64,000 bases of DNA. Source: Patescibacteria group bacterium. GTDB taxonomy: Bacteria > Patescibacteriota > Patescibacteriia > GWA2-46-9. Below, piece after piece: positions 21,932 to 47,557 of this stretch. How positions within the stretch are numbered: position 1 is the stretch's first letter; each line of letters begins with the position of its first letter. The notes beneath the pieces were generated by a model. That model searched no databases. It was not told the DNA's origin and saw only the letters and a list, made by a program, of their open reading frames with translations. Location of the stretch: the NCBI GenBank assembly GCA_041660005.1, contig JBAZXG010000001.1:71689-135688 (forward strand), given 5' to 3'. Made by a program: the position numbers and the translations under genes.

Positions 21932-22009
21932 GGCGGACCCGACCGGATTCGAACCGGCGATCTTCTCCGTGACAGGGAGACGTGTTAACCGGGCTACACC
22001 ACGGGTCCG
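21932..22009 (-). tRNA. tRNA-Asp (anticodon GTC)
   Basis: Minus strand reads CGGACCCGUGGUGUAGCCCGGUUAACACGUCUCCCUGUCACGGAGAAGAUCGCCGGUUCGAAUCCGGUCGGGUCCGCCA. It has a 7-bp acceptor stem, an anticodon loop CUGUCAC, and a T-loop UUCGAAU. Confidence 0.9.
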
Positions 22010-23390: not shown

Positions 23391-23776
23391 TGGTGGAGAT
23401 GAGGGGAATCGAACCCCTGTGTGAAAAGTGGAACCCGAGAAAGACTACAGGTATAGTCGCCGTTCAATTCTATGCTCGTCGAAGTCCGACGACGACGCGA
23501 CGAGTTGATTTCCGGTAATACTCAGTGGCAGTGTCGGAAAGCCACCACCTTGAGCGCCGAATAATATGGCACCCCGGACGCTCTCATTCGGCGAGAGAGC
23601 AGGGATGGTTCTCGGTTTTATTAGGCGAGAACGGGTACAAAGCTCAGCGACGCAAAAGCGTTCTGAACCTTGCGAGCCAATGAAGTGGCATGTATCTGTT
23701 TGAGAGAGATTTAGGAGCTATCTCACGCTCCACCTGCTTTTTCGGAAGGAACTTTCCGTCGAATCCAAAGCATCCC
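23391..23776 (-). ncRNA. ssrA: tmRNA (SsrA)
   Basis: 5' GGGGAUGCUUUGGAUUCGACGG and 3' GGGGUUCGAUUCCCCUCAUCUCCACCA tRNA-like ends. Internal candidate tag reading frame ...GCG UCG CUG AGC UUU GUA CCC GUU CUC GCC UAA UAA. smpB is immediately adjacent. Confidence 0.85.
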
Positions 23777-23783
23777 CAGATGC

Positions 23784-39292: not shown

Positions 39293-39478
39293 AAAAATAG
39301 TATTACTCCTTTGTTGCCTGCGTCACTCGGAAATAAAAAGACCGCGCTAGTTACTGCACGGCGCCTGAAGACTTTACTAGAAAACCCGAATAAATGCAAG
39401 CCCTGACGGTTAAAGTCTTTTCACTGCATCAAACATTCAAGGCCAATACTCACCCACAAAAGACCCCGCCACAGCCGT

Positions 39479-39500
39479 TTCCATGTACTAGTACATGGAA
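39479..39500. promoter_or_regulatory. 22-bp perfect palindrome TTCCATGTACTAGTACATGGAA (site 1 of 5)
   Basis: Read directly. Lies just downstream of the last paralog gene. Confidence 0.7.
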
Positions 39501-39539
39501 ATTTATCAAGCAGTTAGTTAACAAAACAATAAAACAACG

Positions 39540-39869
39540 CTAGTACGCATCAACCCCGAACGGTCTCCAATTGTCAAATATTTGTCCTTGAGAGAGAAAA
39601 GTAAGGATAAGAAAAAATACAACGAAACCACAAAAAATTATTACATACGTTCTTTTGGTTGACCGAAAGCAGAATGCTGAAATCAAAAAACCAAACAAAA
39701 GGTAAAAAGGATATAACCAAAGTGCCCATGAAGGCCCGCCAAATAACGACAAATTAAATCGAGTTAATCTAGATTCTTCGCTTAATGTTATCAAGAGATA
39801 ACTAATGACTAAACCTATAACAATAAGAACGAATTTTCGCATTGCTGATCTAAAGCTAATTGATCGCAT
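39540..39869 (-). CDS. Small 3-TM membrane protein, paralog 1 (B-type) of a five-gene tandem array
   Basis: 109 aa. Conserved WLYPFYLL core and C-terminal QGQIFDNWRPFGVDAY. About 90% identical to 40788..41108. Confidence 0.8.
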   Translation of the reverse strand: MRSISFRSAMRKFVLIVIGLVISYLLITLSEESRLTRFNLSLFGGPSWALWLYPFYLLFGFLISAFCFRSTKRTYVIIFCGFVVFFLILTFLSQGQIFDNWRPFGVDAY

Positions 39870-40033
39870 AACTAATTTCTCCTTTGCTAATTAATAATTG
39901 TATATATTGTGAGCCATTGTACTCAATTTTCTTTTGCGGCTCTTCATATTCTTTGCTAACCACGAGTGTAGTGTCTGTTTTACCATTGAAGCGACCAACG
40001 GTAAAGCACTGGCTCATACCTTTTATGCTTACG

Positions 40034-40055
40034 TTTCCACGTACTAGTACATGGA
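40034..40055. promoter_or_regulatory. Palindrome site 2 (TTCCACGTACTAGTACATGGAA, one mismatch)
   Basis: Lies inside a roughly 105-bp intergenic block that is almost identical to the one at 41230-41335. Confidence 0.7.
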
Positions 40056-40096
40056 AATATATAAATAATCTGTGAATAAGAGAAAATCAGGTAGTA

Positions 40097-40429
40097 CTAA
40101 TAGGCGTCGACCCCGAACGGTTTCCAGTTGAAAAATATTTGACCCTGCGTCAAATAAAAAAACAGTAAAAAAACAACGATGAATCCCAAAACAACTCCTA
40201 AATAGGTACGTCTTCCAAAACGAAAAATCACAGCCGAGAGCAAGAACCCCAAAAGTAAATAAAAGGGATATAGCCAGTTTGCCCAGAAAAAAGTTCCAGC
40301 GCCAATTGATGTAATTTTTTTGAATTCACTTATGCCTAAAAACAGATAGCTTAACAAAAAACCGACCAGCCAAAAAAGTAGTGCTCTTATAACTTTTAAT
40401 ATACTAATCTTTTTCATAAGTAAACTCAC
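40097..40429 (-). CDS. Small 3-TM membrane protein, paralog 2 (A-type)
   Basis: 110 aa, MSLLMKKIS... ...NWKPFGVDAY. About 85% nucleotide identity to 41336..41668. Confidence 0.8.
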   Translation of the reverse strand: MSLLMKKISILKVIRALLFWLVGFLLSYLFLGISEFKKITSIGAGTFFWANWLYPFYLLLGFLLSAVIFRFGRRTYLGVVLGFIVVFLLFFYLTQGQIFFNWKPFGVDAY

Positions 40430-40458
40430 CTTTGCTGACGACTAACGATCACGTAATA

Positions 40459-40767
40459 CTAATAGGCATCAACACCAAACGGTCTCCAATTATCGAATAG
40501 GTGACCCTGTAGTGCATAAAACCAAAAAATAAAAAGGATAACAAACCCGATAAAAATCACTACATAGACCCACCTATTGGCGCGGAATACTGAAGCTGAA
40601 ATAAAAAAGGAAACGAAAAAGTATAATGGGTAAAGCCATAATGCCCAGGAAGCGCCGCCAAGGGGAACAAAATTCATGTGAGTAACTCCCGTATTCTCAC
40701 TTAGGCTTAATAACAAATATAAAATAAGTAGACCAAGAACGAAAAATTCAAAAGTCTTCATTGCCAA
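40459..40767 (-). CDS. Small 3-TM membrane protein, paralog 3 (divergent C-type)
   Basis: 102 aa, ...ALWLYPLYFF... ...DNWRPFGVDAY. Confidence 0.8.
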   Translation of the reverse strand: MAMKTFEFFVLGLLILYLLLSLSENTGVTHMNFVPLGGASWALWLYPLYFFVSFFISASVFRANRWVYVVIFIGFVILFIFWFYALQGHLFDNWRPFGVDAY

Positions 40768-40787
40768 CTAATAACGATCAAACAACA

Positions 40788-41108
40788 TTAGTAAGCGTCA
40801 ACCCCAAACGGTTTCCAGTTATCAAATATTTGACCTTGGGAGAGAAAGATAAAAATAAGAAAAAATACAACGAAACCACAAAAAATTACTACATACGTTC
40901 TTTTGGTTGACCGAAAGCATAATGCTGAAAGCAAAAAACCTAACAATAAATAAAAAGGGTAGAGCCAATTTGCCCAGTAACGAGTGCCCAACCCAATCGA
41001 TGTGACTTTATAAAACTCACTAACACCAAGAATGATGTAAGAGATCAGTAAACCCAAAAATAGAATCCCCAAAGAGCGCAGTAGTGATTTAATACTAATT
41101 AAATGCAT
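40788..41108 (-). CDS. Small 3-TM membrane protein, paralog 4 (B-type)
   Basis: 106 aa, ...CFRSTKRTYVVIFCGFVVFFLI... ...DNWKPFGVDAY. Confidence 0.8.
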   Translation of the reverse strand: MHLISIKSLLRSLGILFLGLLISYIILGVSEFYKVTSIGLGTRYWANWLYPFYLLLGFLLSALCFRSTKRTYVVIFCGFVVFFLIFIFLSQGQIFDNWKPFGVDAY

Positions 41109-41273
41109 AACTAATTTCTTTTTTACTAATTAACAATCGTATGTACTGTGAACCGTCATACTCAATTTTCTTTTGCGGCTCTTTGTATTCTTTGCTAACC
41201 GCAAGCGTGGTATCTGTTTTTCATTTGAAGCGACCAACGGTAAAGCACTGGCTCATACCTTTTATGCTTACGT

Positions 41274-41295
41274 TTCCACGTACTAGTACATGGAA
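41274..41295. promoter_or_regulatory. Palindrome site 3 (TTCCACGTACTAGTACATGGAA)
   Basis: Duplicate of site 2 within the tandemly duplicated unit. Confidence 0.7.
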
Positions 41296-41335
41296 ATATA
41301 TAAATAATCAGTGAATAAGAGAAAATCAAGTAGTA

Positions 41336-41668
41336 CTAATAGGCGTCGACCCCGTATGGTCGCCAATTATGAAATATTTGACCTTGTGTCAAGTAGGTGA
41401 ACAATAAAAAAACGACGATGAATCCCAGAAAAACTCCTAAATAGGTACGTCGTCCAAAACGAAAAATTGTAGCAGATAACAAGAACCCCAACAGAAGATA
41501 AAAAGGATAGAGCCAGTTTGCGTAAAAAAGTGTCCCCCAACCAACTGATGTAATTTTCTTAGCTTCACTTATGCTTAAGAACAGATAGCTTAACAAGAAA
41601 CCGACCAGCAAAAAAAGTAGTGCTCTTAGAACTTTTAACATACTAATCTTTTTCATAAATAAACTCAC
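41336..41668 (-). CDS. Small 3-TM membrane protein, paralog 5 (A-type)
   Basis: 110 aa, MSLFMKKIS... ...HNWRPYGVDAY. Start overlaps the 3' end of the upstream giant gene by 26 nt. Confidence 0.8.
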   Translation of the reverse strand: MSLFMKKISMLKVLRALLFLLVGFLLSYLFLSISEAKKITSVGWGTLFYANWLYPFYLLLGFLLSATIFRFGRRTYLGVFLGFIVVFLLFTYLTQGQIFHNWRPYGVDAY

Positions 41669-44600
41669 CCTTACTAATTAATAAATGAATAGTATTTAAT
41701 CCGCCGTAAACTATTTTCTCTGTCTTTTCCTTATAGGGCTTAACCATGAAGATACTTTCGTTTGTTTTCCCAGTGTATGTACTCTTAACCGCTAGTTCCT
41801 CAGGGATAACGATTTTCTGCATAAACTTTTTAAGCGTACTGCTCTTATCATACGCTACGCTATAGGTGAAGACAATCGACCTTTTTAAAATCGAAGTGTC
41901 ACCATAACGGACACCGGTGAGTTCAGCCTTGCCAGCGCTTTTTTTGTTTTTAACTTCAAAAACCAATGTAACCGTATTACCTGCGTCGTCGCTTACCGTA
42001 TAGGCGTTATTCGTTTGTGTAACCTGAGCGGTTGATATCTGGTCACTCCCCACAACGACCGGGTTTTCATCGGTCCCGTCGAACCACACGCGAACATCTG
42101 GGAATGTTTGGTCAATAGAAAAATCAAGGTCCTGCTCTGGCTCCTGATTACCCACTAAGTCGATCGACCGATATGCAATATGATGTGGCCCTTCGGTCAT
42201 AACCACTAAGGGCTGCTCGTAGCGCTGCCATGTTGTCTCAGTATCAAGACGATACTCGGTTACTGCGACACCGGAATCAGCATCAGTCGCGTGAAGCACA
42301 AGAGTAGCCGGACTGCGAAACCAGTCAGGAACAACCGAATCTCCGGTTAGTGTTGCTGAAGTTAGCGGTGCAACGAAGTCATATGCTGGCGAACTTCCGG
42401 CAACTGCTGACGCGGCATAGATTTCAAACTCTCCGTTTCCGCTGAAATCATACGACATTGCAGTGTCAGCGCTCAAAGGCGTCACCACAAGTTCCGCGCG
42501 GCTACCAACTTGGACGGGTACCCGCTGGTACGAAACGTCTTTTGTTATGGTGCCGTCGTAGGTACTGACCGAAAGATCGAATGTGCCGGTGTCGGTACCG
42601 GTAAGCGACACAGTGAACGGTTCTTCTGGTAGAAAGGCAAATTTATTATGTCCAATGGTTTCATAATAAACGCCAGGGATCATATTCTCCACAAGCCCGT
42701 TAGTAGTTAAACCTGCATGATTACCGGCGCTGTCGTAGATATCCAGCGTAACCGGACTATGGACGGATATAAACTTACCGTTAAGTCTGCATCCGGCGCT
42801 CGTCAGGGTAATACCCGGCGGTATATCGGCAACACCCGGCTCGCCCGAAGTCAGTAGACTCGCAACGAGACTGCGGACCGAGGTCGTACTCGCCATTTTC
42901 CCGTGATCTGCATTGCGCACATAATAGCTTTGTTTGACAAGCGGAGCGACAAAATCACTACTCACCAAAGGAACGGTTTTATCTCCCGCGCCGATACGCA
43001 GGTAATATTCATCACTTGCTCGCTCAACGATTCCAGTGATGGTCGGTGAGTCACAGCCGGCAATGTTGTAAGCGTCGATATGAGAATCCTTAAACGAACC
43101 AACGGGTGCAAAAGGATAAGCATTTGCCGTTTGCGCTGCTTCTTGATTTAGCCCTTTGTCGCCCAGTTCGTTGTACATATCAATAAAGTTCAGAATCTTT
43201 GGCTGGCTATTTACAGTGAGGTCATAATAGTAACCTCCGTTCGTTTTAAAATACCTCTGACCGGGAAGTAAATTATAAAGGGAGTACATGTTTTCACCTA
43301 ACTGCTTTATTTTACTGGGATTGATAATCGCGGACATGTTAAAGTCATCACCCCACAGTAAATCTTTGAGTGCTTTTGGCGCCCCGAGGTGAGGAGTACC
43401 GATAAAAATGAGCTTGGCAATACTGTTATCATGCGGATGAGTATTCGTGTAATAATCTGCAACTACTCCGCCCATGCTATGAGCAACCACATCGACGACA
43501 TCACTGTGTGTTTGCTCTTTAATGGCAGAAATTTTTTTAACCAACTGAGCACTAGGAGTACCGATATTTTGCCGCCAATCATAGGGCATAATAAAAAGAT
43601 TTATATTTTCCGTATAGCCATTCGCTTTGAGTTCGTTAATGAGGCCACTAAAATAATCATAAGCAATGAACGGAACACCATTATTGATGGTACGAATAAC
43701 ATCACCCGGCTGAATTTCGGGATCAGTTGGCGTCCCGTCAGGGTGCATAGCCAGAACATCAAGAAAACTGTCCGTTAGATCAACGAGCAAAGAGGCAACG
43801 TCCAGCCAAATTTTATTGTTTCCCTTTTTAAGCTCACTCCCTGCAATGCCGGGCAGAAGAAGCACGGGGCGTTTATTGAATGACGGCGCTTCAGGTGGTC
43901 GAGAGAACCAGGTCATGGAGGTCGTAGTGCACGTGCTAACATCTTGTCCTTTACCTTCAGGATTACTTTGAGCGTATGGACCAGACACATCTCCCCACCA
44001 ATTGCCGTCCAGATTATATAAATCTACAGCATCACAAATTACTCCCGCTCTTTTGTTATTAAAATAGGCATAGTACAGACCATTGTCAAAAAAACTATTG
44101 CCACGGAGCTCAACAGAAACAGCTCCAAATTCTGTATTTGATAAGAGGGCGATTGCAGCAGCACCGTTTTGATGAAATGTATTATCAATAATATGCCCTT
44201 CTCCTCCTTCGATGATGACTCCCCAACCAGCCAATACATTACCTTGCTCGTCCTGATTCTGTGCAATTTCATTCCGCTCAAGCGTCGCAACAGATCCATA
44301 CAGAATAATTCCAGCCCCTGAGTAAATACCATCTACAATGTGCGAATCTTTGATCGATATGTTTGCCTGTACTGCGTAAATCTGTCCAGGCCTATCCTCT
44401 TCATAGCGTGATCCGCCACTATAACGCACTATAGTATGACTTATCTCCCCCGTACTGCCTGGTGCAAAAAACAAATCTGACCAATCGTAACCATGGGGTG
44501 TCGTTGCGTTACCATCATTATTGGTATCTCCGCCAACCGTATCGTCTTTGTATGATGTGAAAATAACTGGACTGTCGGTTGTTCCTGCTGCAATGAGCTT

Positions 44601-44876
44601 CCCTTCTACTTTAATCTGACCCCACGCCGACGCTTTAATAATTGTTCCTGGCTCAACCGTCAAAGTAACACCCGGGTTAATAACGAATTGATTAAAAATA
44701 GTATGCACACCATCTTGAGGGCTCCAAGTTGTATCGTGGTCAAGGTAAGTCGGATTCGGCCCCACTGCTAAAGTTGGTTGAGCTAACGAAAGTATCCCAA
44801 ACAAAAAAGCCGCAGCAACAAATGCTGCGCCATAACCGCTTCTCGCTGCTATTTTTATTTTACTTTTACCCTCCAT
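41643..44876 (-). CDS. Large secreted multidomain protein: signal peptide, right-handed beta-helix, LCAT-like alpha/beta-hydrolase (lipase/phospholipase-acyltransferase), C-terminal beta-sandwich domains
   Basis: Signal peptide MEGKSKIKIAARSGYGAAFVAAAFLFGILSLAQPTLAVG. Beta-helix repeats at about residues 60-330. Lipase motifs PVLLLPGIAGSEL, PYDWRQN, VVDVVAHSMGGVV (GxSxG) and FIGTPHLGAPKA. Possible GTG start at 44915; the ATG at 44876 begins the signal peptide. Confidence 0.8.
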   Translation of the reverse strand: MEGKSKIKIAARSGYGAAFVAAAFLFGILSLAQPTLAVGPNPTYLDHDTTWSPQDGVHTIFNQFVINPGVTLTVEPGTIIKASAWGQIKVEGKLIAAGTTDSPVIFTSYKDDTVGGDTNNDGNATTPHGYDWSDLFFAPGSTGEISHTIVRYSGGSRYEEDRPGQIYAVQANISIKDSHIVDGIYSGAGIILYGSVATLERNEIAQNQDEQGNVLAGWGVIIEGGEGHIIDNTFHQNGAAAIALLSNTEFGAVSVELRGNSFFDNGLYYAYFNNKRAGVICDAVDLYNLDGNWWGDVSGPYAQSNPEGKGQDVSTCTTTSMTWFSRPPEAPSFNKRPVLLLPGIAGSELKKGNNKIWLDVASLLVDLTDSFLDVLAMHPDGTPTDPEIQPGDVIRTINNGVPFIAYDYFSGLINELKANGYTENINLFIMPYDWRQNIGTPSAQLVKKISAIKEQTHSDVVDVVAHSMGGVVADYYTNTHPHDNSIAKLIFIGTPHLGAPKALKDLLWGDDFNMSAIINPSKIKQLGENMYSLYNLLPGQRYFKTNGGYYYDLTVNSQPKILNFIDMYNELGDKGLNQEAAQTANAYPFAPVGSFKDSHIDAYNIAGCDSPTITGIVERASDEYYLRIGAGDKTVPLVSSDFVAPLVKQSYYVRNADHGKMASTTSVRSLVASLLTSGEPGVADIPPGITLTSAGCRLNGKFISVHSPVTLDIYDSAGNHAGLTTNGLVENMIPGVYYETIGHNKFAFLPEEPFTVSLTGTDTGTFDLSVSTYDGTITKDVSYQRVPVQVGSRAELVVTPLSADTAMSYDFSGNGEFEIYAASAVAGSSPAYDFVAPLTSATLTGDSVVPDWFRSPATLVLHATDADSGVAVTEYRLDTETTWQRYEQPLVVMTEGPHHIAYRSIDLVGNQEPEQDLDFSIDQTFPDVRVWFDGTDENPVVVGSDQISTAQVTQTNNAYTVSDDAGNTVTLVFEVKNKKSAGKAELTGVRYGDTSILKRSIVFTYSVAYDKSSTLKKFMQKIVIPEELAVKSTYTGKTNESIFMVKPYKEKTEKIVYGGLNTIHLLISKGEFIYEKD

Positions 44877-44979
44877 TATTATTAAATTAGTCCAATCTAA
44901 AAAATTCTGCAACACGACTTATGCACAAGCCCAGAAGTGTCAGCAGCTTCCGTGTATTCATCCCGAGGCATGTCGAGGG

Positions 44980-44993
44980 ACTAGTACATGGAA
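44980..44993. promoter_or_regulatory. Palindrome site 4 (half-site ACTAGTACATGGAA) in the promoter region of the giant gene
   Basis: The right half is intact; the left half is replaced by GTCGAGGG. Confidence 0.5.
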
Positions 44994-45277
44994 ATATATG
45001 ACTCTAAAATTCATCAATCGTTGGTTACCTTAACTTTGTTAACTAAAAAACAACAAAAAAACACCTTTGTGCCAAAATCATGACCTCAAACGTGACAACG
45101 ACCATGATTGCTTTTTTGGACTTTTTGAGGCAAGATAGCCCCGTTGTTCTTTAATAATAAATTCGGACGGACACTTAAATTGCCAATTTAATCGGCACTT
45201 TGGGCGTCCGTCTTGAATAAAGATAGCGACGAAGGAGCGGGACAAGAATCATGGCTACGAACACAGGAGGCAATTCC

Positions 45278-46213
45278 ATGACAGAGCAGAGTCAGAAGAC
45301 AGAAATCGACACCCAGATGGGTGAAAGATTCCCGGTACTCGGAGGCGACGTCCTGGCCTTCTTGGTACTGATGGCCACTCGAGGGCGGGTGCTGGTTGGG
45401 TCGTTCGGTGACCACCAGTACATCCGCGTCGAATGTACCGAAGGGCACGAAAAAGACGCGAAATGCGTTCTCGACGGCCTCAAAAAGCCGTGGGCGCCAG
45501 TCAATGGCCAACCACCATTTTCTTTCGAGGCCCTAGTGGCGAAGTATGAGGCACAGCGAACGGTTCGCGGCGCCTACGCTGCTCTCAGGGTCGATCGGGA
45601 TCGGGACGCCCACTGGAACATCCATGCACCGGCCTGGACGCTGCCAGAAAAAACTGAAGAGGTAGCAATACCCGTCATCAGCTTCGTGCTGCCGGTTCCG
45701 GCGGTAACCGACCCGGACTTCAGTAGACTTTCGCGCCGAGCCAACAAAGTTCAGGAAGACCTCAACAAGAAAGAACGAGAGCTTATGCAGTTGGCGCTCG
45801 AGGTCGCTCGCGGACGGCTGCTGAGCCAAGCGATGGAGGCACGGATCACCGCAATGACTAAGGCGAGCGCTCAAGTTCGCGAGGGTGCTCACACTCTGCG
45901 GCAGCTGCATGCCAACGTTCCCATCGATGGTGGTGGGCGGGTAACCGTGATTGCCAGCTTGTCAGACGACAAACTGGCAGATATTGAGCAGCGGCTCGGG
46001 ATCGTCAACCCGTCGGCTTCGTCCTGGCGCTGGTGGAGCAACAAGGACCGAGCACAGGCTATCTGCGCTCGTGAAGATGGGGAGCTTACCGAAGCGCTTC
46101 GCTACTGTCTGTCGGGCGAGCAGGCTCGTCAGCTGGCGCGCATGCTGGGGTACCAGATCTCCGCCGAGATACCAACGGAGAGGTGGTGCCAACTGGTTGC
46201 CGAGTTCCGGTAA
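45278..46213 (+). CDS. Hypothetical protein (high-GC island 3)
   Basis: AGGAGG RBS before ATG at 45278. About 62% GC. Terminator hairpin at 46264-46295. Confidence 0.5.
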   Translation: MTEQSQKTEIDTQMGERFPVLGGDVLAFLVLMATRGRVLVGSFGDHQYIRVECTEGHEKDAKCVLDGLKKPWAPVNGQPPFSFEALVAKYEAQRTVRGAYAALRVDRDRDAHWNIHAPAWTLPEKTEEVAIPVISFVLPVPAVTDPDFSRLSRRANKVQEDLNKKERELMQLALEVARGRLLSQAMEARITAMTKASAQVREGAHTLRQLHANVPIDGGGRVTVIASLSDDKLADIEQRLGIVNPSASSWRWWSNKDRAQAICAREDGELTEALRYCLSGEQARQLARMLGYQISAEIPTERWCQLVAEFR

Positions 46214-46263
46214 CCACCGAGAAGAAGCGAACAATCCGCAACCGGACCTGGCCAGTAAGCCAG

Positions 46264-46295
46264 GTGATGGGGCGCCACAAAAAAGGCGCCCCATC
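46264..46295 (+). terminator. Rho-independent terminator
   Basis: GATGGGGCGCCACAAAAAAGGCGCCCCATC followed by a T-rich run. Confidence 0.7.
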
Positions 46296-46493
46296 TCTAT
46301 TTCTAATAAGAATGAATGGATTTTAAAATATAAAGAAGAGTGTTTGTTTCTTGAATAGTAGAAAGTCGTTCTACGTTGCTAACTCATAATAACTTTTTAA
46401 AATAAAAAGTTTCATAAAATCTATAAAGCATCAACCCAGACATCCGAAGATGCCTGGGTTGCTCGTGTCGGCCGGACACGCACGGTTGCGGAC

Positions 46494-46901
46494 TCAGATG
46501 CCGGTCTTGTGATACGGCTCCAAACGATCGGAGCCGTCGAGTCGCAGCTTATAACCGCAACTCGTCATCACAGACCACCGCTTGCGAAGCAGCCTCTCCA
46601 AGAGCTGTCGGTACACCGGTTTGGTGTGCCACAGCATCATAGAGAAATACTGTTTCACGAGCTGAGCGATCTGAGTGGGCGTGATCCAGAGTTGGACGTC
46701 GATGTCCTGAGCGAACCCATCCTCTCCTGGAACAAACGCTTTTGCAGCGATGTTCAGGCAGAAACGGGTGCTCGGGGTCTCACGATCCACTCCTCCCTCG
46801 CCGCCACCAAGCAGAAGCTCGGCGCCCTGGACGGTCTCCAACTGGACGTATGGCTTGCCGGTCGCCCCGCAAACCCGCGCCTCCAGAGTGGTCCATTCCA
46901 T
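46494..46901 (-). CDS. Hypothetical protein (high-GC island 3)
   Basis: AAGGAGG RBS on the minus strand. Hairpin terminator downstream at about 46441-46468. Confidence 0.5.
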   Translation of the reverse strand: MEWTTLEARVCGATGKPYVQLETVQGAELLLGGGEGGVDRETPSTRFCLNIAAKAFVPGEDGFAQDIDVQLWITPTQIAQLVKQYFSMMLWHTKPVYRQLLERLLRKRWSVMTSCGYKLRLDGSDRLEPYHKTGI

Positions 46902-47056
46902 ATGGTCCTCCTTTTATTTCCCTATTCTGTAGTCCTCTCCCGAAGGAGTCGGTGTCATCAGAGAAACGTGCAAATATACACCAAGAGAACAGTTTTGTCA
47001 ACGGTAATGTATTAATAACTGCCCCTCGGTAGATTGATTTTATACCCGACCAACAA

Positions 47057-47272
47057 CCCATAGGATCGACGTAGGTAGTGACGAGCGGAGAGAACTGAAA
47101 TAATGGTCGTGCTGTTTGAGGAGTGCTAACGACGAGTTTACGACCATCGGTTCTCGGAGTGCAGTCATGCCACAGCCGAATCCTTAGGGTGTCATTTCCG
47201 CCGAAGGCGGATCGTTCTCCGAAGGACTTTCCGTCTACTTTCTTGGACAAGTCCCGACGTAAAGTCGGGACC
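47057..47272 (+). repeat. Structured noncoding element family, copy 3 (5'-truncated)
   Basis: Core CCCATAGGATCG...GGAGAGAAC...AATGGTCGTGCTGTTTGAGGAGTGCTAACGACGAGTTTACGACCATCGGTTCTCGGAGTGCAGTCATGCC... matches copies 1 and 2. The terminal hairpin is replaced by GTCCCGACGTAAAGTCGGGAC. The conserved tail (ACTTGCAGTTTTGCCTTTTG...TTTTGAATTAT...TTGACA) extends to about 47530. Confidence 0.7.
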
Positions 47273-47557
47273 CCGATTCAATAGATTTTATTAAGAATGG
47301 CGTCGGGACAAAAAGGTAACAATCAGTCTCGAGGTCCCGTCTGACAGGATCGAGGACGTTAAATTTGTTGAGCGAAAAAGAGAAACGTATCTGCTATAGT
47401 TTTTCCACCGTAAGTGGATCCGCAATTGGCGGAAGTTTTTGACTTGCAGTTTTGCCTTTTGATTTTTGAATTATTAGCTGTCCCTTTTGACATCCCCCAT
47501 TGAATCCTTTAACCTGCGGTCAAGGACAAAGACAAATGGGGATAAGGAGAGTGCAAC

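Follow-up and report, generated by a model that had tools for sequence, protein, structure and literature searches.

A predicted exported LPLA2/LCAT-type hydrolase coupled to diverging small membrane proteins and coding relic cassettes in Patescibacteria

Introduction

Patescibacteria account for a large share of bacterial diversity. In one of these ultrasmall bacteria, a minus-strand cluster at positions 39,540-44,915 of a 64,000-nucleotide (nt) stretch of contig JBAZXG010000001.1 (hereafter the window, meaning the whole stretch analysed) carries one long open reading frame (ORF) and five short ones, and the question raised by this locus is why the gene of a large lipase-like protein should be followed by five diverged copies of a gene for a small membrane protein. 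The original prediction, made from the sequence letters and an ORF list, described a giant gene with five small paralogs, and proposed either an effector-immunity module or, should the organism resemble the candidate phyla radiation, a lipid-harvesting one. All six minus-strand ORFs are present, and the organism is a Patescibacteria metagenome-assembled genome (MAG), as named on the database copies of the small proteins, which bear WC817_ locus tags. Here we describe the predicted enzyme, its translationally coupled membrane partners, the coding relics found between them and the recurrence of the pairing in related genomes, and weigh the roles that such a module may have.

Patescibacteria are reported to lack lipid synthesis (PMC11665869; PMC7242380), and lipidomics indicated that lysolipids are taken from neighbours (PMC7242380); the lysolipid-rich sample of the latter study shares its name with an Uhrbacteria MAG that carries the module. 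The idea that secreted phospholipases might supply host lipids has already been voiced (PMC8080830; PMC11665869). Searching the literature for LCAT together with 'candidate phyla radiation' found no paper linking LCAT-like enzymes with these bacteria, and none of the literature searches that were run produced an account of the small partners. The enzyme is a new member of a known family; what is new is its coupling to fast-evolving, unnamed partners and the accompanying coding relic cassettes.

Results

The large protein carries a complete LPLA2/LCAT-type hydrolase

The large gene and its parts are as follows.

41643..44876, minus strand: large multidomain protein, predicted to be exported; 1,077 amino acids (aa) from the ATG at 44876, the GTG-extended ORF reaching 44915
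44763..44876, minus strand: N-terminal signal peptide region, MEGKSKIKIAARSGYGAAFVAAAFLFGILSLAQPTLAVG (sequence features and model)
43902..44744, minus strand: right-handed beta-helix, residues ~45-325 (Pfam Beta_helix and model)
42807..43874, minus strand: LPLA2/LCAT-fold alpha/beta hydrolase, residues ~335-690 (Pfam, Foldseek and alignment)
43476-43478, 42981-42983 and 42903-42905, minus strand: codons of the catalytic residues Ser467, Asp632 and His658, respectively (codons verified)
43053-43055 and 42789-42791, minus strand: codons of Cys608 and Cys696, the latter just beyond the hydrolase end given above
41646..42788, minus strand: C-terminal beta-sandwich domains, residues 697-1077 (all-beta AlphaFold model)
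42114-42314, minus strand: OmpL47-type barrel (NCBIfam barrel_OmpL47)
41646-41894, minus strand: last domain of the large protein, the end of which is copied in the relics described below (alignment)

Profile searches matched the large protein to Pfam LCAT (PF02450) with E=4.6e-21 (75.9 bits against a cutoff of 21) over residues 369-570 of the 1,090-aa extended ORF, more weakly to PGAP1 and a generic alpha/beta-hydrolase family, to Beta_helix (Pfam E=1.7e-6) and to the NCBIfam OmpL47-type barrel (E=6.8e-20); LCAT, PGAP1 and Beta_helix, for which the original prediction had proposed a search, were thus all recovered. The motifs PGIAGSEL, YDWR, AHSMGG and GTPHLGAPKA from which that prediction had drawn its LCAT-type call are present as well. 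When the protein was aligned with 40 homologs, Ser467 (in AHSMGG), Asp632 (in GDxTVP) and His658 were invariant in all 41 sequences, as were Cys608 and Cys696, so the Ser-Asp-His triad, whose absence had been named as an argument against the enzyme, is complete and invariant. Among solved structures, lysosomal phospholipase A2 (LPLA2; E=1.8e-8) is the best match by sequence, LCAT coming next, and Ser467 aligns with the catalytic Ser165 of LPLA2 (4x92 being its S165A mutant).

The AlphaFold model of the large protein (mean predicted local distance difference test score, pLDDT, of 86.3) consists of beta-strand alone over residues 49-320 and ends in ~380 residues of beta-sandwich domains. Foldseek comparison of the hydrolase, which is ~20% identical in sequence to LPLA2/LCAT, returned LPLA2 with E=3e-14 and a template modelling (TM) score of 0.73, and LCAT with E=9e-12 and a TM score of ~0.7; the alignments span 392-402 columns over LPLA2/LCAT chains of 375-378 residues at TM scores of 0.68-0.74, essentially the whole length. 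The type VI effector Tle4 (PDB 4r1d) was a distant match only (TM 0.45, E=8e-7), and the LipA:LipB lipase:foldase complex (9g8u) was also among the distant structural matches. The Pfam score, the triad and the fold together bear out an LCAT/LPLA2-type hydrolase, and its fold predicts phospholipase A or transacylase activity, with a lipid as the putative substrate.

The N-terminus MEGKSKIKIAARSGYGAAFVAAAFLFGILSLAQPTLAVG has a basic n-region and a hydrophobic core, with small residues ahead of the mature part, and is modelled at low pLDDT with a single helix at 18-25, features of a signal peptide that would probably be cleaved upon export. After this region neither the model nor the sequence contains a membrane anchor. 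The start was placed at ATG 44876 because the alignment of the closest homolog begins at that Met, so that the giant of ~1,080 aa in the original prediction holds in size, at 1,077 aa, with its start moved. Conservation is highest in the hydrolase domain (up to 0.78 identity with the ortholog), and many homologs align at their extreme C-termini with the last ~58 aa. The GC content falls in the last ~350 nt of the gene, but GC at third codon positions displays no sharp step, and a compositional breakpoint at the C-terminal domain was rejected as a sign of foreign origin.

Five small paralogs form a diverged array under purifying selection

The five small genes lie downstream of the large gene in the order A-B-C-A'-B'.

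41336..41656, minus strand: small membrane paralog A, 106 aa from its ATG, with AAGGGTGAG upstream, overlapping the large gene by 14 nt
40788..41108, minus strand: small membrane paralog B, 106 aa
40459..40761, minus strand: small membrane paralog C, 100 aa from its ATG (TTG-extended ORF to 40767), the most divergent copy
40097..40417, minus strand: small membrane paralog A', 106 aa from its ATG, 85% identical to A
39540..39869, minus strand: small membrane paralog B', 109 aa, a mosaic

The A-B-C-A'-B' form proposed earlier was confirmed by comparing paralogs and gaps. The overlap of the large gene with A, previously given as 26 nt, is 14 nt from the ATG start of A (41656), the same as in homologous loci. 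Paralog A is identical to the database protein P0002. Identity among the five proteins ranges from 41 to 85%, and 32 alignment columns are invariant, among them those of the C-terminal GVDAY, which is conserved in all five as had been noticed. AlphaFold models a small paralog with three helices (3-36, 50-68 and 73-94; pLDDT 83), in agreement with the three membrane helices anticipated for each; the first loop contains a short hairpin, and the 16-residue tail is flexible. The N-terminus and the loop joining helices 2 and 3 (RFGRRTY or RSTKRTY) carry the basic residues, from which the positive-inside rule suggests that loop 1 and the conserved tail face outwards. The tail, of the pattern FxNWxPFGVDAY (for example QGQIFDNWRPFGVDAY), is the most conserved region at 73-93% identity, loop 1 and the N-terminus with helix 1 are the most variable, and in the model the conserved residues sit at the outer membrane interface.

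Every copy is under purifying selection, with ratios of nonsynonymous to synonymous substitution rates (dN/dS) of 0.12-0.41, so none of the five is a decaying duplicate. The sequences also contain evidence of loop swapping and mosaicism. Two types of loop 1 occur, a long one (NFxPxGGxSWALW) and a short one (SxGxGTxxWANW), and the metagenome proteins P0006 and P0007 are near-identical save for this loop. In paralog B', the C-terminal half is B-like, with a proportion of nonsynonymous differences (pN) of 0.066, and the N-terminal half is unlike B (pN 0.41), being nearest to C and to the single Uhrbacteria partner; the loop, too, is closest to that of the Uhrbacteria partner.

No match to the small paralogs was found in Pfam, NCBIfam, PADLOC or PHROG, in line with the earlier statement that they belong to no recognised family, and no housekeeping membrane family, a match to which would have spoken against the module, emerged among these databases. 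A weak Acyl_transf_3 signal (11-17 bits against a cutoff of 31) was observed in 4 of 21 small-family members, in a consistent register at profile positions 89-175 for P0010, P0012 and P0014; it lies far below significance, may reflect hydrophobic composition only and is a hint at most. A complete Acyl_transf_3 acyltransferase was rejected as an identity for the small protein, three helices being too few.

The gaps of the array hold coding relics of the large gene

Two of the gaps between the small genes contain short ORFs, hereafter relics.

41095..41256, minus strand: relic mini-ORF 1, 53 codons, with an in-frame TGA at codon 12 and a 14-nt overlap with B
39856..40017, minus strand: relic mini-ORF 2, MSQCFTVGRFNGKTDTTLVVSKEYEEPQKKIEYNGSQYIQLLISKGEISYAIN, an intact 53-codon ORF with a 14-nt overlap with B'

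The two 227-nt gaps (A-B and A'-B') are 89.9% identical, and each opens with a 111-nt block that is 98% identical between them and holds a 24-nt palindrome, while synonymous sites in the genes flanking the gaps differ by 26-47%. Rfam gave no match on the conserved 111-nt block. The remainder of each gap is a 53-codon ORF whose product is 42% identical to the last ~45 aa of the large protein and also aligns with the extreme C-termini of other members of the large-protein family. The duplication of an A-intergenic-B unit proposed earlier is therefore upheld as an ancient event, with the correction that the 'intergenic' part holds a palindrome and a coding relic.

The 14-nt overlap between the large gene and A recurs where each relic meets the small gene after it, and is identical at all three junctions (large gene/A, relic 1/B and relic 2/B'). 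Of this junction, only ~25 nt are left ahead of paralog A', a remnant of the last codons of the large gene together with the ribosome-binding site, AAAGGTGAGTTTACTT. Between the two relics, 16 of the 24 differences fall at third codon positions; the proportion of synonymous differences (pS) is 0.41, equal to that of the neighbouring genes, and pN is 0.079, giving a pN/pS of 0.19 (p=1.9e-4), which indicates that the relic has been kept as coding sequence since the duplication. The relic mini-ORF has an ATG start, no signal peptide and a poorly spaced ribosome-binding site. No second large paralog that could have served as a gene-conversion donor for the relics was found in the 64-kb window.

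The in-frame TGA of relic 1 (41221-41223) aligns with GGT at 39982-39984 in relic 2, and some Patescibacteria lineages read TGA as Gly. Rescue of relic 1 by such a code was rejected, since 6 of the 43 long ORFs terminate in TGA and the standard code yields intact long genes. The TGA is either a recent inactivation or a coincidence.

The same arrangement was found in L021, an unrelated metagenome contig, in which a family member is followed by a 121-aa orphan ORF and, 4 nt further on, by another small membrane ORF; the orphan ORF matches the C-terminal domain of large-protein homologs (E=2e-11) up to their very ends. The relic junctions and this layout together indicate that the unit copied or displaced is the end of the enzyme gene plus the partner gene.

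The pairing recurs among Patescibacteria with changing partners

The small family is a very rare one: it amounts to 10 clusters in a collection of 5.8 billion proteins, five of them from the locus in the window, and to 16 cluster representatives in an exhaustive profile search of 1.84 billion. In each of the seven lineages in which the upstream DNA is readable (L001-4, L005-9, L013-14, L015-18, L020, L022 and L028), a homolog of the large protein precedes the small gene, at a spacing of -14 to +10 nt in most of them, and the pair occupies two different chromosomal neighbourhoods; contigs L019, L021 and L023 are too short to reveal the upstream gene. Widespread occurrence of the paralogs without a lipase neighbour, which would have told against the module, was not seen: in readable contexts none lies away from an LCAT-like gene. 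A syntenic Uhrbacteria MAG carries a single partner with the 14-nt overlap, and BipA and DEAD helicase genes follow downstream, as in the window. In a second genome the pair is placed after SecDF, and further pairs came from a third genome, from several short metagenome contigs and, in the case of L028, from the genome survey.

The large-protein family is broader, with >700 matches at E<1e-10; its named members come only from Patescibacteria lineages or unclassified MAGs and include homologs in Saccharibacteria MAGs (e.g. L035 and L044). A survey of species-representative genomes, seeded with the large protein, recovered at least 368 relatives, and the co-occurrence that the original prediction had proposed to survey was indeed found, the pairing of lipase and small membrane protein being recurrent. 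Among the 25 close homologs with readable downstream DNA, 18 are followed by a small ORF (85-146 aa) with two or three transmembrane helices that starts within 80 nt past the stop, whereas the same holds for only 2 of 74 other long ORFs from these loci (Fisher p=3e-12).

The partners themselves differ. Compared with the small family of the window, the downstream partners gave only hmmsearch E>0.01 and an hhalign probability of 26% over 10 columns, L028 being the sole true member of the window's family among those surveyed; no Pfam match was obtained for the ten partners scanned. The other partners form several families, many of which end in an aromatic/glycine tail (...NxxxGF), and in the Paceibacterota locus L039 four tandem paralogs stand downstream. 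In L020 and L022 the large homologs have a different C-terminal domain, and a family member still follows. What is conserved is thus the architecture, a predicted exported LCAT-like enzyme with a small polytopic membrane protein, and not the sequence of the partner.

Several further arrangements were observed around related genes. In L026 (about 8330 onward), a 712-aa membrane protein of ~12 helices begins 5 nt past the stop of the large homolog, and the gene directly after the large homolog in L036 and L041 encodes a 560-570-aa protein whose nucleotide-binding loop reads GEPGAGKT; no small partner is present in these three. Small four-helix ORFs of 122-144 aa lie at -3 to +13 nt from more distant LCAT-like genes in L083, L093 and L094 (Chloracidobacterium, Pyrinomonadaceae and Gammaproteobacteria MAGs), and the pairing may extend beyond Patescibacteria, some of these bins being possibly mislabelled. 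L020 carries two paralogous membrane ORFs of ~103 aa and of a different family between the lipase gene and P0016 (L020:7347-7990), the second of which is uncalled in the source annotation. In L019 (465-1352), a small family member is followed after 17 nt by the start of another LCAT-like gene with a different N-terminal domain, so that some genomes possess two such enzymes as neighbours. In L020 the module is flanked by RadC, a Phd/YefM antitoxin and a type I restriction-modification system, and in L022 by a TaqI-type restriction enzyme and a methylase; it thus stands among defence/mobile-type genes in these two genomes and among housekeeping genes in the window and in the Uhrbacteria MAG.

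A palindrome follows three of the small genes

Three copies of a 24-nt palindrome and one half-copy were located.

41273..41296, plus strand: palindrome copy 1, TTTCCACGTACTAGTACATGGAAA, 39 nt past the stop of A
40034..40057, plus strand: palindrome copy 2, 39 nt past the stop of A'
39478..39501, plus strand: palindrome copy 3, perfect, 38 nt past the stop of B'
44980..44999, minus strand: half-palindrome, the 20-mer ATATATTTCCATGTACTAGT, upstream of the large gene (sequence match)

The palindrome (TTTCCAyGTACTAGTACrTGGAAA) recurs 38-39 nt past the stops of A, A' and B', with a chance expectation of 0; copy 3 forms the end of the cluster, 185 nt ahead of the start of the BipA gene, and the half-palindrome matches copies 1 and 2 exactly over their left flank, left arm and centre. 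In the operon-sense RNA the palindrome folds as a 10-bp hairpin, and copies 1 and 2 keep the pairing through a G-U pair on that strand only. Perfect or near-perfect, the palindrome is invariant across six sites in all, the other three being on metagenome contigs in unrelated contexts (L104:456-479, L105:1728-1751 and L106:6269-6292); convergent gene ends enclose it in L105 and L106, and both arms of the L105 copy carry a compensatory change. The palindrome is absent from the 103 related loci compared, and this absence together with its presence in unrelated contigs led us to reject a module-specific operator. An integron-like cassette site was likewise rejected, as no recombinase is found among the annotated neighbours and the palindrome stands between convergent genes elsewhere. 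The element looks like a generic gene-end hairpin or a repetitive extragenic palindromic (REP)-like element of these organisms, and its copies past A, A' and B' are probably points at which transcripts end or are processed. A scan for promoter and terminator consensus sites found them no more frequent than in shuffled sequence.

Neighbourhood of the cluster

The annotated neighbours comprise BipA, DEAD helicase, Nramp, MaoC-like, ABC transporter and cupredoxin genes, together with ORFs without a family match. Between the large gene and the MaoC-like gene, ~2.6 kb (window positions 45000-47550) have a GC content of 0.52-0.59 against ~0.45 nearby, and this block contains overlapping ORFs on both strands (320 aa, 45251-46213; 135 aa, 46494-46901), none of them with a family match. 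The large and MaoC-like genes are only ~300 nt apart in the syntenic Uhrbacteria locus, for which reason the block looks like an insertion. Further away in the window, a transfer-messenger RNA gene (115 bits) and a transfer RNA gene lie on the minus strand at 23391-23777 and 21934-22008, and are ordinary.

Discussion

The reading that we favour, with a probability of roughly 45%, is that the module combines an exported membrane-active lipase with a partner for immunity-like self-protection, amplified in cassettes. The cluster is the amplified form of a two-part unit widespread in Patescibacteria. In our proposal its first part, a predicted Sec-exported serine hydrolase of the LPLA2/LCAT type, would act outside the cell on membrane lipids of the host or of neighbours; its second, the three-helix protein whose translation would be coupled to the end of the enzyme gene, would reside in the producer's own membrane, bind the cognate enzyme at the producer surface and block hydrolysis of the exposed membrane. 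The last codons of the enzyme gene plus the partner gene have been copied or displaced several times, leaving five diverged, maintained partners and two coding relics of the C-terminus of the enzyme, and the extra partners may cover variant enzymes from related cells.

Self-protection is favoured because antibacterial phospholipases are co-produced with immunity proteins, because immunity genes form diverged, recombining tandem arrays, as at the TslA/TilA locus, and because downstream orphan modules of a C-terminus plus a small gene are a hallmark of conflict loci; moreover, a cell bounded by a single, exposed membrane is directly threatened by a phospholipase that it exports. Several observations weigh against it. 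The piece that was copied is the non-catalytic C-terminal end, so that classic polymorphic toxin logic is not directly applicable. The enzyme looks like a conserved chromosomal gene, syntenic in two genomes, and not like a sporadic weapon; ~7 of the 25 close homologs lack a small partner; and in the model the partner exposes only ~20 + 17 residues, little surface against a 350-residue enzyme. The relic mini-ORF, with its poorly spaced ribosome-binding site and no signal peptide, is under a coding constraint for which this reading gives no reason.

A rather less probable view is that the small protein docks the exported enzyme, by the C-terminal domain of the latter, at the epibiont surface, receives the lipid product, or does both, as a housekeeping device for scavenging lipids. 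Contact between the two proteins is suggested by the joint travel of the enzyme's C-terminal end and the partner as a cassette in two lineages, and beyond its signal peptide the enzyme itself contains no membrane anchor. A broad, chromosomally syntenic family in organisms reported to be without lipid synthesis (PMC11665869; PMC7242380) would suit such a device, as would the position of the conserved partner residues at the outer membrane interface and the fact that, besides being phospholipases, LPLA2 and LCAT act as transacylases. It is, however, hard to explain why one enzyme should have five diverged anchors, a conserved mechanistic component would not usually lack detectable similarity between lineages as the partners do, a stand-alone transporter needs more than three helices, and the L020 and L022 homologs precede a family member despite their different C-terminal domain. 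The stronger form of this view, a lipid-acquisition machine in which the transacylase strips host acyl chains or lysolipids and the partner passes them into the bilayer of the epibiont, is unlikely; there, the fast-evolving loop and the cassette turnover would be an adaptation to host envelopes and not immunity. Guarding and harvesting are compatible, because a lipid-harvesting enzyme would still need a guard, and the data fit a combination of both roles.

That the partner is a dedicated helper in export, folding or activation of the lipase seems improbable to us. Its gene is directly downstream and translationally coupled, and LipA:LipB is among the distant structural matches of the hydrolase, yet the enzyme carries an ordinary signal peptide, helpers are not usually amplified into diverged arrays or swapped for unrelated families, and the partners, with three helices and almost no soluble part, are unlike lipase-specific foldases. 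Hardly credible is the possibility that the neighbours are coincidental, being unrelated membrane proteins or annotation noise with relics that are decaying pseudogene fragments. The link between the genes comes from sequence comparison, and small hydrophobic ORFs are easily over-called; against this stand the enrichment of 18/25 over 2/74, the same 14-nt overlap kept across genomes, dN/dS well below 1 for all copies together with the constraint on the relic, and the finding of the small family only beside these enzymes in readable contexts.

The enzyme shares with LPLA2 (PLA2G15) and LCAT the fold over nearly the whole enzyme, the AHSMG nucleophile motif, YDWR and the Ser-Asp-His triad, but here the hydrolase is embedded in a 1,077-aa bacterial protein between a beta-helix and beta-sandwiches and is coupled to a small membrane protein. 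TslA, a phospholipase A toxin of Staphylococcus aureus that has a helical targeting domain, is secreted by the type VII system, and TilA, its immunity protein, is a DUF576 lipoprotein that binds the TslA lipase domain (PMC10730906). Both loci have a membrane-active lipase, predicted in our case, outside a single-membrane bacterium with a protective or candidate protective gene adjoining, and multiple non-identical tandem paralogs that shuffle sequence by recombination. They differ in that our module would use signal-peptide export and a three-helix integral membrane partner; no DUF576 or other Pfam match was found on the partners, and the C-terminus of the large protein is all-beta, without an LXG-like helical domain.

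Orphan modules of the contact-dependent inhibition (CDI) and Rhs systems resemble the array in having truncated 3' copies of the main gene, each followed by a small gene, and CDI orphan C-terminal/immunity modules are read as older pairs displaced by newer ones (PMC9086364). Truncated 3' fragments with small genes downstream are present here as two relics, and again in L021. In CDI, however, the displaced C-terminus is the toxin and usually lacks a start codon, whereas here it is a 53-codon non-catalytic beta-sandwich end with an ATG, and the catalytic domain is not exchanged. The locus is accordingly not a textbook polymorphic toxin of the kind to which the original prediction likened its layout, as the catalytic domain is central and conserved and the displaced piece is the non-catalytic end.

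The comparison made there with Tle/Tli modules of type VI secretion does not hold either: no secretion-system genes are among the annotated neighbours, and the TM score to Tle4 is only 0.45. Tle4-Tli4 is likewise an alpha/beta-hydrolase lipase effector with an adjoining protective gene, but Tli4 is a soluble separate protein in the solved complex (4r1d), unlike the polytopic membrane partners here. LipA-LipB/Lif operons also place the gene of a membrane-anchored helper after that of a secreted lipase, and differ in helper architecture and in lacking both arrays and relic cassettes. In lipase-specific foldases, a single anchor helix is joined to a large helical domain outside the cytoplasm, and a Lif identity was rejected for the partners, which have three helices, a short hairpin loop and a 16-residue tail in the model. 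Because at least one defining feature of each is missing, the module is none of Tle/Tli, TslA/TilA, CDI/Rhs or lipase-foldase; by analogy, it may work most like a lipase-immunity pair with orphan modules.

Some Saccharibacteria are now genetically manipulable, and homologs occur in Saccharibacteria MAGs, which makes the idea testable. The coding relics of a non-catalytic C-terminus represent an unusual cassette turnover, which could reveal the mutually recognising parts of both proteins. A phylum-wide, putatively exported LPLA2/LCAT-type enzyme is a candidate producer of the lysolipids that these bacteria appear to take from their neighbours, and its linked membrane partner is a candidate for how the cell avoids digesting its own exposed membrane. 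Together they offer a testable lead to how Patescibacteria may attack or harvest membranes without self-harm.

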